Shown here: positions 3,984 to 8,807 of the stretch, one piece after another
Layout: the number at the start of each line of letters is the position of its first letter
How positions within the stretch are numbered: position 1 is the first letter of the stretch
DNA from: Geobacter metallireducens GS-15
Lineage (GTDB): Bacteria; Desulfobacterota; Desulfuromonadia; Geobacterales; Geobacteraceae
DNA: 32,000 bases
Direction: 5' to 3'
Assembly: GCF_000012925.1 (NCBI RefSeq)
Contig: NC_007517.1
Location: 3,840,001 to 3,872,000, forward strand
Position numbers and translations under genes: made by a program
Notes under the pieces: generated by a model
The model's input: only the letters and a program-made list of their open reading frames with translations
Told to the model about the DNA's origin: nothing
Databases searched by the model: none

Positions 3984-4870
3984 CCCCTGCAAAGAAACTC
4001 CTTTCTTACTCCTACTACCCGGGCTGCTCGCTGCACGCCTCGGCCAAGGAATACGACGAATCGACCCGCGGGCTGTTCAAGGCCCTCGGGATCGGCCTGC
4101 AGGAAGTCCCCGACTGGCTCTGCTGCGGAGCCACGCCGGCCCACAACGTGGACGAGTTGCTGTCGCTCTCCCTGTGCGCCAAGAACCTCTCCCTGGCCGA
4201 AGGGGTTGAGGGGGACCTGGCCGTGGCCTGCGCCGCCTGTTTCTCGCGCCTGAAGGTCACCCAGCACCACCTGGCCGACAACGAGACCAAGCGCAAGCAG
4301 GTGGAGTACGCCATCGACGGGACTGTGAACCTGGCCAAACCGGTGAAGCACCTGCTGGAGATCCTGGCGAAGGACTTTGGTCTCGACCGGCTCACAGAGG
4401 CAGTACAGAAACCCCTTGCCGGCTTGAAAGTCGCCTGCTACTACGGCTGCCTCCTGACCCGCCCCCCCGAGGTGCCGCAACTGGACTGCGTCGAGGCCCC
4501 CACCATCATGGAGCGGGTCATCGGCGCCGTGGGGGCCGAGACCGTGGGCTGGAGCCACCGGATGGAGTGCTGCGGCGCCAACTTCACCCTGTCGCGCCCC
4601 GGCGTGGTCCTCAAGCTCTCCGGCAGTATCCTCGATTCCGCCAAGGCCGCCGGCGCCGACTGCCTCATGGTCGCCTGCCCCTTGTGCCACGGCAACCTGG
4701 ACATCAGGCAGAAAGAGATCGAGGAGGCCACAGGGCAGCGCTTTGGCATGCCGGTCTTCTACATGACCCAGCTCCTGGCCCTGGCTGTAGGGGTCGCGCC
4801 GGGAAAACTCGGCTTTGACAGCATGATCGTGAACCCGCTGCCGCTGTTGCGGGAAAAACAGCTTTTGTAA
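3980..4870 (+). CDS. hdrB: Heterodisulfide reductase subunit B-like protein (two CCG domains)
   Basis: The GTG start at 3980 overlaps the hdrC stop (GTGA). The sequence begins VTPAKKLLSYSYYPGCSLHASAKEY and has CCG motifs (DWLCCGATPAH and MECCGANF), plus CPLCHGNLD. It lies in frame with the 3500..4870 track ORF, whose N-terminal part is non-coding read-in. Confidence 0.88.
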   Translation: MTPAKKLLSYSYYPGCSLHASAKEYDESTRGLFKALGIGLQEVPDWLCCGATPAHNVDELLSLSLCAKNLSLAEGVEGDLAVACAACFSRLKVTQHHLADNETKRKQVEYAIDGTVNLAKPVKHLLEILAKDFGLDRLTEAVQKPLAGLKVACYYGCLLTRPPEVPQLDCVEAPTIMERVIGAVGAETVGWSHRMECCGANFTLSRPGVVLKLSGSILDSAKAAGADCLMVACPLCHGNLDIRQKEIEEATGQRFGMPVFYMTQLLALAVGVAPGKLGFDSMIVNPLPLLREKQLL

Positions 4871-5064
4871 TAACACGGAGAAACGGAGCACACGGAGAAC
4901 GGACAATAATTAACAGGCCTCATCAAAGGGTATTCAAGGATTAAGAGACGTCGAGGCGTAAACCAAAAAATGATTTTCGGTTCGCATCCCGATCCTTATG
5001 AGTATCCCCATTAAACAATAAATATTTTTGCTTTTCTCCGTGCTCTCCGTATCTCCGTGTTATT
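4869..5064. repeat. Intercistronic inverted-repeat element IG1 (31-nt arms, about 134-nt AT-rich spacer)
   Basis: Arm 4869-4899 is AATAACACGGAGAAACGGAGCACACGGAGAA. Arm 5034-5064 is TTCTCCGTGCTCTCCGTATCTCCGTGTTATT. They are 28/31 complementary. The element starts inside the hdrB stop codon and ends 20 nt before the hdrA ATG. Confidence 0.75.
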
Positions 5065-5084
5065 GAATTTGTAAGAGGTATTCA

Positions 5085-7757: not shown

Positions 7758-8675
7758 ATGAACACTACGGCTCAACAACTCGATACCACCGCCATCGCCC
7801 CTGCGGTCTACGCGACCATTACCGACGCCATCTGCCGGGAAGCTGAGAAAGCCCTGGAGAGCGGCGCCGTGGCCGCCGTGGTGGGGTGGCAGGCGGGGCG
7901 AAGGCAAGGCACCGCCATGCCGGCCATCGTCACCACCCCGGCAGATACGGACAAGCTCATCTTTTCCCCGGCCTGCGTCAACAACCTGGCCCTCTACCTC
8001 TCCAAAGCCAAGAAGGAGATCCGGGCCAGGGGGAAGATCGCCATCGTGGTCAAGGGATGCGACCTCAAGGCGCTTGTGGGACTCATGGGAGAGAACCAGC
8101 TGAAACGGGCGGATATCCACGTGATCGGCGTGGTCTGCCCCGGGGTGCGAGGGACAAGCGAACCCCTCGCGAAGAAGTGCCGGGAGTGCACGGTGCACAC
8201 CCCGGAAGGGGCCGATGTCACCGTGGGGACGCTCCCCGAGTTGCCGCACTTCACGCCGGCCGAGAGCGAGGAACTGGCCCGGCTTGAGGCCATGACCCCG
8301 GCGGAGCGCTGGAGCTTCTGGAAGGAACACTTCGCCCGTTGCATCCGCTGCTACGCCTGCCGCCAGGTCTGCCCCTTCTGCTACTGCGAGCAGTGCCTCT
8401 GCGACCGCAACCGCCCCCAGGCGGTGGAGACCACGCCGCGGCCGGCCGGCAACATGGCCTGGCACATCGTACGGGCCATGCACCTGGCGGGGCGCTGCGC
8501 CGGGTGTGCCGAGTGCGAGCGGGCCTGCCCCATGGACATCCCCTTGAATCTCCTGAACCGCAAGATGGCCAAGGAGTTGAAGGAGCTCTACGGCCACGAG
8601 GCGGGGTTCGAGGTGAAGGAGAAGGGTCCCCTGGCGGAGTACCGGGAAAACGACGACCAGAGTTTTATAAAATAA
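7758..8675 (+). CDS. Iron-sulfur cluster-binding oxidoreductase subunit (FlxC-like, 4Fe-4S dicluster)
   Basis: 305 aa with CIRCYACRQVCPFCYC and CAGCAECERACP. It starts 2 nt after the mvhD stop. Confidence 0.8.
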   Translation: MNTTAQQLDTTAIAPAVYATITDAICREAEKALESGAVAAVVGWQAGRRQGTAMPAIVTTPADTDKLIFSPACVNNLALYLSKAKKEIRARGKIAIVVKGCDLKALVGLMGENQLKRADIHVIGVVCPGVRGTSEPLAKKCRECTVHTPEGADVTVGTLPELPHFTPAESEELARLEAMTPAERWSFWKEHFARCIRCYACRQVCPFCYCEQCLCDRNRPQAVETTPRPAGNMAWHIVRAMHLAGRCAGCAECERACPMDIPLNLLNRKMAKELKELYGHEAGFEVKEKGPLAEYRENDDQSFIK

Positions 8676-8686
8676 CCAAAACCTGG

Positions 8687-8807
8687 AATAACACGGAACA
8701 ACGGAGCACACGGAGAAAACCGAATAAACTGACAAGACAACGGGTCGCAAATCATTTCAGGTACCCCTAATGATCGGGTTTAAGCCGTTCTCCGTTGCTC
8801 CGTTGCT
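8687..8807. repeat. Intercistronic inverted-repeat element IG3: left arm, spacer and the first 20 nt of the right arm (the rest of the right arm is at 9968-9977, displaced by the IS)
   Basis: Arm 8687-8717 is AATAACACGGAACAACGGAGCACACGGAGAA. It shares an 18-nt identity (AACGGAGCACACGGAGAA) with IG1. The right arm TTCTCCGTTGCTCCGTTGCT (8788-8807) continues as CTGTGTTATC at 9968-9977. Confidence 0.75.

Follow-up and report, generated by a model that had tools for sequence, protein, structure and literature searches.

Tandem-unit inverted repeats at the gene junctions of an hdr/flx operon of Geobacter metallireducens: probable selfish hairpin elements, with arms that match the predicted guides of an IS110-family insertion sequence

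The genome paper of Geobacter metallireducens GS-15 (Aklujkar et al. 2009, BMC Microbiol 9:109; PMC2700814) lists several families of dispersed sites. Class 2 sites consist of three tandem TCTCCGTS[Y] repeats and form 21 opposite-strand pairs at variable distance. Class 1 sites consist of four GTTGCTYN repeats and form 24 pairs, from which ISGme8/ISGme9 lie a constant distance away. Also catalogued are four "group 6 RNA elements with complementary ends" and 49 elements of four GGGACCG heptamers. Classes 1-3 were called species-unique, and binding by paralogues of IHF/HU was suggested without a test; additional IHF-alpha and HU genes are present in this genome. Here, we analyze a 32,000-nt stretch of that genome (NC_007517.1, positions 3,840,001-3,872,000; "the window"), in which long inverted repeats occupy gene junctions of an hdr/flx-type operon. 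These junction elements are referred to as IG1 to IG4. An earlier note, made from the sequence alone, had described IG1, IG2 and IG3 and suspected a dispersed repeat family, which the published tallies bear out. IG4, a fourth element of like build, was absent from that note.

Several other described systems are related in one aspect or another. Cyanobacterial short tandemly repeated repetitive (STRR) sequences are tandem 7-nt units in intergenic DNA, with several sequence classes per genome. They are usually described as plain tandem arrays, and neither inverted pairs nor a stop-codon rule belongs to how they are defined. Repetitive extragenic palindromic (REP) elements have a palindromic unit with a 5' GTAG-type tetranucleotide and are mobilized by RAYT proteins. 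MITEs, the miniature transposable elements with inverted repeats (such as Chunjie, Correia/NEMIS and ERIC), share their interiors, have clear target-site duplications and have a parent insertion sequence (IS). According to passages in PMC3184786 and PMC10969869, Chunjie of Geobacter uraniireducens (Chen et al. 2008) reportedly inserts in an operon without disturbing it. REP elements are favored targets of the IS110/IS1111 family (reference 11 of PMC11208160; PMC12288879).

We consider it probable (about 0.6) that the elements in the window are selfish, non-autonomous hairpin repeats, which are adapted to the gaps between stop and start codons and have arms that are read by a trans-acting factor. 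This reading builds on the identity of the elements with published features, on their insertion status and distribution, on a positional rule and on the match between a repeat arm and an IS target. The elements themselves have been known since 2009. New are the cross-phylum ACGGAG type, the insertion status, the tests for an RNA function and the match to the guides of ISGme8.

The elements in the window are published features (Table 1), catalogued in 2009 and never explained. They agree with the published class descriptions in tandem-unit consensus, in opposite-strand pairing at variable spacing (134, 73 and 69 nt) and in location, and the published R6001 and R6002 sequences align with IG2. 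Judged by sequence, classes 1 and 2 and group 6 may be read as variants of one unit, CTC(C/T)GT(G/T). Features and consensus sequences are thus the same as in the 2009 catalogue, but the ACGGAG type is found here in many phyla, and the elements are recognized as insertions relative to a 98% relative.

For IG1 and IG2, the repeat finder returns two arms of 31 nt each (90% complementary and 134 nt apart in IG1; 87% and 73 nt in IG2), and each arm consists of three tandem 8-9-nt units, as had been described. The arm pair described for IG3 is evident only when bases 8808-9967 are removed. The arms then agree in 27 of 30 positions, with a bulge of 1 nt and a spacer of 69 nt. In the sequence as it stands, the right arm has only 21 nt, and the IS110 element lies inside. 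Tandem units are detected in every arm by Tandem Repeats Finder (TRF), with a period of 8-9 and 2.8-3.9 copies. The elements are 135-196 bp in size, with terminal inverted repeats of 31 nt. The motif pair ACGGAGNNNACGGAG occurs five times in the window, while 0.26 occurrences are expected by chance. The 18-mer AACGGAGCACACGGAGAA is, as had been reported, exactly shared between IG1 and IG3 (4882-4899 and 8700-8717) and occurs nowhere else in the window. The spacing to the neighboring genes is also as described: 0, 15 and 11 nt from stop codon to arm and 20, 17 and 12 nt from arm to start codon for IG1, IG2 and IG3, respectively. The hdrB stop codon (TAA at 4868-4870) shares bases with the start of the IG1 left arm. 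In IG4, the left arm lies within the last codons of the iron-sulfur (FeS) subunit gene, and the right arm precedes the next start codon.

As RNA, IG1 and IG2 are predicted to fold with -73.5 kcal/mol (z = -6.0 against shuffles) and -74.6 kcal/mol (z = -8.3), respectively. The nested hairpins that had been proposed for the spacers are better than shuffles only in IG2 (z = -2.85), whereas the spacers of IG1 (z = -0.59) and IG3 (z = -0.14) fold no better than shuffles. Single arms lack self-structure: all five have folding energies of 0 to -0.8 kcal/mol, which do not surpass shuffles. Rfam yielded no family for any of the elements or for the left end of the IS (window and 18 element-bearing loci at the gathering threshold; the region at an E-value threshold). 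Within the elements, there are no terminator-like or promoter-like sites beyond chance, as judged by shuffles. Intrinsic terminators (GC-rich hairpin followed by a T-run) were considered and discarded, as no such site lies in the elements and the counts are not above shuffles.

Orthologous operons were retrieved via HdrA homologues, and the relatives are characterized below by their HdrA identity. In G. hydrogenophilus (98%) and in a G. sulfurreducens-type contig (91%), the hdrB stop codon directly abuts the hdrA start codon (TAG/ATG), the hdrA/mvhD junction is TAA/ATG (or TAATG), and the FeS/FeS gap is TAG-8 nt-ATG. Such tight junctions in a 98% relative identify IG1, IG2 and IG3 as recent insertions, acquired after the split. 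IG4 is common to G. hydrogenophilus and, therefore, is older than IG1-IG3. A 95% relative (L246) has no IG1 but carries a class-2 element at a different junction, the one after FeS/FeS. There, the upstream stop codon sits within the terminal AATAAC. In three more Geobacteraceae (89-92%), the same junctions hold inverted repeats with arms of 28-35 nt that are 73-90% complementary. These have three or four tandem units per arm, and the unit motifs are CTGAAGG, GTTCGAN, CGCAGAG, ACGCAGATG and GGTCCCAT. The right flanks are alike everywhere: A-rich, AGG, T-rich and, after 7-10 nt, ATG. Since other units occur at the same junctions with like flanks, architecture and position are general and the unit sequence is variable. 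Finally, a class-2 element is located exactly at the IG1 position in the metagenome contig Ga0247844_1029031 (L261, approximately 2590-2995; HdrA only 82%). Its junction (EKQLL, stop codon TAA, then directly TAACACGGAG) is the same as in the window, with synonymous codon differences, and its interior of about 350 nt is unrelated.

Repeats of other kinds are also found in L246. Its hdrA/mvhD junction holds a 190-nt element with the palindrome GCGGCGTAGCCCTGCTACGCC (8999-9190), which belongs to another repeat family and resembles the 24-member "short RNA" family of the genome paper. Its FeS/FeS junction holds a GTAG-type REPIN (10639-10712; GTAGGGGCGAATCTTGTATTCGCC...), likewise of another repeat family.

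One genome per species was scanned for three ACGGAG units, which gave at least 120 stretches. The following results apply to the matches listed. Many stretches consist of an ACGGAG arm that is followed, 6-600 nt on, by a CTCCGT arm. An ungapped partner with at least 75% identity lies downstream for 64 of 148 arms and upstream for four. Both arms are perfect in 17 elements. These are from Pirellulales, other Planctomycetota, Acidobacteriota (including Geothrix limicola), Gemmatimonadales, Caulobacteraceae, other Proteobacteria and Spirochaetota; Verrucomicrobiota are also among the groups with a consensus arm. The common consensus of the 17 elements is TTCACC-ACGGAG-RC-ACGGAG-R(N)C-ACGGAG plus the mirror image. 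The interiors of the cross-phylum elements are unrelated, and conservation fades 6-7 nt beyond the first unit. The cultured species Gemmatirosa kalamazoonensis has nine and eight BLAST matches on two megaplasmids, and one Kiritimatiellota contig has two copies with a shared interior. Searches of the literature with the arm motif strings returned nothing relevant. Viral contigs have mostly single period-9 arms, which are probably coding repeats, and few paired elements, with no sign of an association with phages.

A generic unit search of the retrieved slices resulted in 44 paired elements of the ACGGAG type and one other, which is a weak test because the slices had been chosen for ACGGAG. The idea that ACGGAG is merely one of many random unit types was set aside upon this count, yet the Geobacteraceae relatives show many types. 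Where paired arms lie far apart (L020, L042 and L260), the genes between them are ordinary ones (L,D-transpeptidase-like; trmB and SDR; leuD) and include no transposase. Two unusual arrangements were also observed. In a metagenome-assembled genome (MAG) from Acidobacteriota (L044, 745-1505), approximately 18 tandem GTCAACGGA units face approximately 11 GACTCCGTN units at a distance of about 450 nt, so that the unit number per arm can far exceed three. In a Verrucomicrobia MAG (L018, 1-270), approximately nine 30-nt direct repeats (GAAGGCTCGGTGACACGGAGGAAMAAAAGGCGA) adjoin a Geobacter-like right arm (TTTCTCCGTCTCTCCGTATTCTCCGTGTTAT).

A 30-nt arm that is found across distant phyla, located after stop codons, with an unconserved interior and without compensatory evolution, points to a putative recognition or mobilization system. 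It is a tentative proposal, which we consider rather doubtful, that the window elements are local members of an undescribed cross-phylum superfamily of intercistronic hairpins, spread or kept by a widely distributed machinery, either protein-based or RNA-guided. If so, this machinery would recognize the tandem units and would spread or maintain the elements. The interest lies in this cross-phylum family and its putative machinery, not in the window features themselves. The wider picture would show how a selfish element lives in essential operons without breaking them.

The elements obey a positional rule. For nearly every element of the genome set, among the matches listed, a plausible gene (high GC content at third codon positions) ends 0-20 nt ahead of the arm. 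When metagenomes were scanned for the Geobacter-type terminus (CTCCGT..CTCCGTGTTAT), 134 distinct ends were obtained. Of these, 48 are stop-proximal, and in nine the stop codon is the TAA of A-TAA-C. There is a cluster of ends at 19-21 nt, in which the stop codon is the first triplet of the outer module TAAACCTGAAAACGGCAGTTNA. Another 31 of the 134 ends are start-proximal, with a Shine-Dalgarno (SD) sequence and ATG 16-45 nt off. The outer flanks are mutually inverted (TAAACCT ... AGGTTTA) and, thus, present a stop codon on the 5' side and AGG on the 3' side on either strand. In G. metallireducens, 16 class-2 pairs are in co-directional and five in convergent contexts, and the class-3 pairs are six co-directional and two convergent; none of the 29 pairs (class 2 and class 3) is in a divergent context. 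In another organism, two four-unit elements (L260, 995-1140 and 1810-1965) separate leuC, leuD and the next gene. The interior of one of these holds a nested GTAG-type hairpin (GTAGGTCGGGCTTCAGCCCGAC).

The earlier note had also suggested that the repeats serve as landing pads for the IS110 element. This is well supported by three independent ISGme8 insertions at one arm position and by matching guide segments in the IS leader. The insertions compared are those in the window, in a second G. metallireducens contig (L248) and in a sequencing-run assembly (L249). In all three, ISGme8 is located within the outermost unit of a right arm of the class-1 type, at ...CCGTTGCT^C(T/C)GTGTT..., and GTTGCT is found at both junctions of ISGme8. 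The target in the repeat arm is CGTTGCTCTGTG. IG1 is devoid of GTTGCT and is not an ISGme8 target.

For IS621, it has been reported that the left guides of the bridge RNA pair, on the bottom strand, with left target/donor plus core, while the right guides pair, on the top strand, with core plus right target/donor (PMC11208160). The non-coding left end of ISGme8 is predicted to form two similar modules. In one fold (z = -2.6), a stem encloses a putative target loop, GGUCGUUGCU - apical hairpin - GUCACAGAGCG. The second module, a putative donor loop, is AACGGUUGCU - hairpin - ...GCAAG. The candidate left target guide (LTG), UCGUUG-CU (UCGUUGCU), matches CCGTTG-CT in the top strand of the target (CCGTTGCT), and the candidate right target guide (RTG), CACAG-AG, is the reverse complement of CT-CTGTG. 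On the donor side, the candidate left donor guide (LDG), ACGGUUG-CU (AACGGUUGCU), matches the right end of the IS (ACGGTTGCT), and the candidate right donor guide (RDG), CAAG, is the reverse complement of CT-TG. As in IS621, the 5' segments repeat the top strand of left target plus core or left donor plus core, and the 3' segments are the reverse complement of core plus right target or core plus right donor; the core is CT, and the RDG has 4 nt. This comparison is based on sequence inspection and one fold, and Rfam 15 has no match on the region. The data fit a CT-core bridge RNA that would be aimed at the repeat-arm sequence CGTTG-CT-CTGTG. ISGme8 would then show, in a natural case, how an IS110 bridge RNA is adapted to a repeat family, and would bear on the choice of safe landing sites by these recombinases. 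Two further features of ISGme8 may be mentioned. Its right end itself resembles an arm unit, and there is a 22-nt inverted repeat (9726-9747 and 9949-9970; CAGAGCAACCGTGCGTTCTGTC / GACTGAGAACACGGTTGCTCTG; 82% complementary), of which one copy lies in the transposase gene, in its 3' part, and the other covers the right end of the IS plus flank.

For the mechanism, we infer mobility, a trans-acting factor and host neutrality. The hairpin DNA repeat, dispersed and non-autonomous, would have copies that settle in the short gap between a stop codon and the next start codon. A putative trans-acting factor would recognize or copy the arm, whose 30 nt are constrained in sequence and comprise three units of 8-9 nt in tandem. 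Tolerance in operons may have two reasons: the palindromic element would be folded out of the transcript as a long hairpin, and its outer ends would tend to provide a 5' stop codon and a 3' AGG-type ribosome-binding site (RBS) in either orientation. The mRNA hairpin would thus be a consequence of the build rather than a demonstrated function. ISGme8, in turn, may be led to class-1-type arms (CGTTG-CT-CTGTG) by a bridge-RNA-like transcript of its own left end.

Several observations weigh against the selfish hairpin repeat. There is no autonomous copy, transposase or RAYT-like gene in about 1.7 Mb of slices (about 8 kb each). Spacers are wholly unlike between copies (IG1, IG3, L246, L248 and L261, compared by eye) despite the youth of the insertions, which would not be expected of a MITE that simply copies and pastes itself. 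A single sequence-specific protein is at odds with the many unit motifs within Geobacteraceae. Candidate target-site duplications are inconsistent: TTTGTAA is seen around IG1 and CAAAA around both IG3 and the L246 copy, always with an offset of 5 nt on one side, and nothing clear is visible at IG2 or L248. The distribution within the operon has an unexplained feature, as L261 (82%) has an element at the IG1 position while relatives at 98%, 95% and 91% have TAG/ATG there. Finally, the window elements exceed the control for pairing of the SD sequence (0.55 vs 0.40, 0.92 vs 0.46 and 0.73 vs 0.50).

The last point bears on the proposal, made in the earlier note, that the hairpins affect mRNA stability or processing and subunit stoichiometry. 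In its explicit form, the elements would be RNA hairpins that act in cis in the polycistronic hdr/flx mRNA, are under selection and set subunit stoichiometry either as barriers to RNase III or exonucleases or by translational coupling through SD masking. The very stable predicted folds are consistent with this, and so is the location, as the elements begin 0-15 nt past a stop codon and end right ahead of the next RBS; stop-codon proximity is kept across phyla. In all three window elements, SD pairing is above the control, and the stems extend onto the SD sequence (CUUUUG/UAAGAG in IG1, AAAACUUUUU/AGAAGGUUUU in IG2 and AACCU/AGGGUU in IG3). However, the same operon lacks the elements in the 98% relative and in G. 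sulfurreducens, and the elements are symmetric and are also found between convergent genes. SD masking is not general: the pairing probability is 0.52 over 23 junction elements and also 0.52 with a shuffled left flank (p = 0.78). On the transcribed strand, G·U is not in excess of A·C mismatches, with 83 G·U-compatible transition mismatches in sense and 85 in antisense (71 elements, inferred direction of transcription). Compensatory changes between the arms, proposed as a check in the earlier note, are barely apparent. Variable linker bases are complementary in 46% of the cases, compared to 34% by chance (shuffled partners), so that most variable arm positions do not match; in 54 of 56 pairs, the two arms mirror each other in linker length. 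Taken together, weak compensation, lack of a G·U bias and lack of general SD masking leave selection at the RNA level unsupported. Conservation concerns the motif of either arm and the register between both, not base pairing in the transcript. A selected RNA function thus seems unlikely to us. RNA hairpins would still form, so that effects on the mRNA are possible. CsrA binding (A-N-GGA) and anti-SD mimicry were set aside because the motifs lie inside the duplex and other unit types are devoid of GGA.

Motif conservation without compensation would be compatible with arms that are binding sites for a host DNA-binding protein (a nucleoid protein or global regulator), either IHF/HU, as suggested by Aklujkar et al. 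(2009), or one of the ribbon-helix-helix type with tandem 7-9-bp units as its sites, and that shape chromosome structure or transcription. The three to four tandem units 8-9 bp apart with mirrored linker lengths fit such sites, as do the extra IHF-alpha and HU genes of G. metallireducens. MetJ and omega are examples of ribbon-helix-helix proteins with tandem repeats of 7-8 bp as their binding sites. Against host binding sites stands that the elements are located inside operons and never in divergent promoter regions, that at least eight unit motifs share one architecture in related genomes, that the same arm occurs in phyla without a common lineage-specific regulator, and that the arms lack an IHF consensus. 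An IHF consensus in the flanks, checked by eye, was one base off and was dropped. We therefore give little credence to host binding sites as the explanation. Integron attC-like sites, or other sites of site-specific recombination that mark cassettes, share the imperfect inverted repeats with a variable center directly after ORFs, and the elements of some relatives end with ATTCAAC...GTTGAAT, which fits RYYYAAC/GTTRRRY. This consensus is not fitted by the ends in the window (AATAAC/GTTATT and GCCAC/GTGGC) or by the cross-phylum ends (TTCACC/GGTGAA), the flanking genes are a conserved syntenic operon, and no integrase is nearby; such sites are highly improbable. Chance or low-complexity sequence has only the short motif length in its favor and is practically negligible: motif counts far exceed shuffles, the folds are many standard deviations more stable, and dozens of paired copies with fixed polarity occur in unrelated genomes.

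The proposed likeness to REP/BIME or MITE elements stands with respect to distribution and insertion status, while strict membership fails on the defining features. With REP/BIME/REPIN elements, the elements described here share that they are multicopy and extragenic, located 3' of genes or between cistrons near stop codons and not in divergent promoter regions, and that inverted pairs form a long hairpin. REP units are palindromic, start with a GTAG-type tetranucleotide and are mobilized by RAYT, whereas here the arms are direct repeats with the termini AATAAC, GCCAC or TTCACC. No RAYT gene flanked by repeats was found at the inspected far-apart arm pairs (8-kb slices and the 32-kb window). 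In relatives, genuine REPINs of the GTAG type are present at the same junctions as a separate kind of repeat. As in Chunjie, Correia/NEMIS and ERIC, the elements are small, intercistronic and co-transcribed, with terminal inverted repeats and stable RNA folds; Chunjie was compared by description only. Unlike in MITEs, the interiors are unrelated, the target-site duplications are ambiguous, and a parent IS with the same terminal repeats is absent from about 1.7 Mb of retrieved slices. Tandem short units, intergenic location and several classes are reminiscent of STRR sequences, which are not defined by an inverted-pair architecture. The best reading is that the elements are REP/BIME- or MITE-like in behavior (multicopy, lineage-specific, fast turnover, 3' of genes, hairpins, IS110 targets) but not in build.

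The hdr/flx-type operon content of the region is backed by Pfam matches. All features with their coordinates are listed in Table 1.

Table 1. Junction elements, ISGme8 and operon genes in the window. Published names and locations are from Table S4 of PMC2700814.
Feature	Position	Strand	Published name and location	Basis or remark
IG1 left arm, AATAAC + 3 x (C)ACGGAG	4869..4899		Gmet_I222A, class 2; pair I222A/B is 3' of hdrB, 5' of hdrA (Gmet_3425/3426)	repeat finder, TRF, Table S4
IG1 spacer, 134 nt	4900..5033			no significant own structure; unlike spacers of other copies
IG1 right arm, 3 x CTCCGT(G) + GTTATT	5034..5064		Gmet_I222B	repeat finder, TRF, Table S4
IG2 element, CACAGAG-unit arms 7098-7128 / 7202-7232	7098..7232		Gmet_R6004; between hdrA and next subunit (Gmet_3426/3427)	repeat finder, fold, TRF, Table S4
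IG3 left arm	8687..8717		Gmet_I124A; pair I124A/B is 3' of Gmet_3428, 5' of Gmet_3429 ("transposase of ISGme8, IS110 family")	repeat finder, Table S4
IG3 right arm, inner 21 nt GTTCTCCGTTGCTCCGTTGCT, cut by IS	8787..8807		Gmet_I124B	
IG3 right arm, outer 11 nt CTGTGTTATCA, displaced by IS; begins CTGTGTTAT	9968..9978			
IG4 element, GGGACCA x4 facing GGTCCCC x3	10981..11087		Gmet_H447/H448; between Gmet_3430 and Gmet_3431	shared with G. hydrogenophilus
ISGme8, IS110 family, 1160 bp; transposase 8986-9942	8808..9967	+	ISGme8	Pfam DEDD_Tnp_IS110 and Transposase_20; Table S4 name; three insertions define ends
ISGme8 non-coding left end, 178 nt, two bridge-RNA-like modules	8808..8985	+		sequence match and fold
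hdrB, CCG domain	3980..4870	+	Gmet_3425	Pfam CCG; synteny with Table S4
hdrA	5085..7082	+	Gmet_3426	Pfam; exact protein match in G. metallireducens assembly GCA_000243475.2
mvhD / FlpD-family subunit	7250..7756	+	Gmet_3427	Pfam FlpD, E = 4e-52
FeS subunit	7758..8675	+	Gmet_3428	Pfam
Second FeS subunit; last codons contain IG4 left arm	9991..11019	+	Gmet_3430	Pfam
NAD-binding FlxA-like subunit	11101-11946			Pfam

The final hdrB codons build a terminator-like hairpin, GCTGTTGCGGGAAAAACAGC followed by TTTTGTAATA (window 4843-4862). These codons are the ones most divergent from G. hydrogenophilus (LLREKQLL vs LLKEKGLV, each followed by the stop codon). The overall number of such terminator-like sites is not above chance.

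Elsewhere in the window, a short stretch of CTGAAT/TCAGAAT/TTCAGGA (14564-14600) is located directly 3' of the stop codon of a histidine kinase gene. Table S4 lists the class-3 pair Gmet_I308A/B (MTYCTGA heptamers) at this position, between convergent genes. A GC-rich 22-nt inverted repeat at 26272-26320 (GCTCTGGGCCGGGAGGGTGCGG / CCTCCCCCTCCCGGCCCAGAGC; loop of 5 nt, 91% complementary) is unrelated to the tandem-unit family. The Rfam matches in the window at the gathering threshold are one small SRP RNA of the bacterial type and two tRNA genes (841-939, minus strand; 1039-1123, minus strand; 21510-21596, plus strand).

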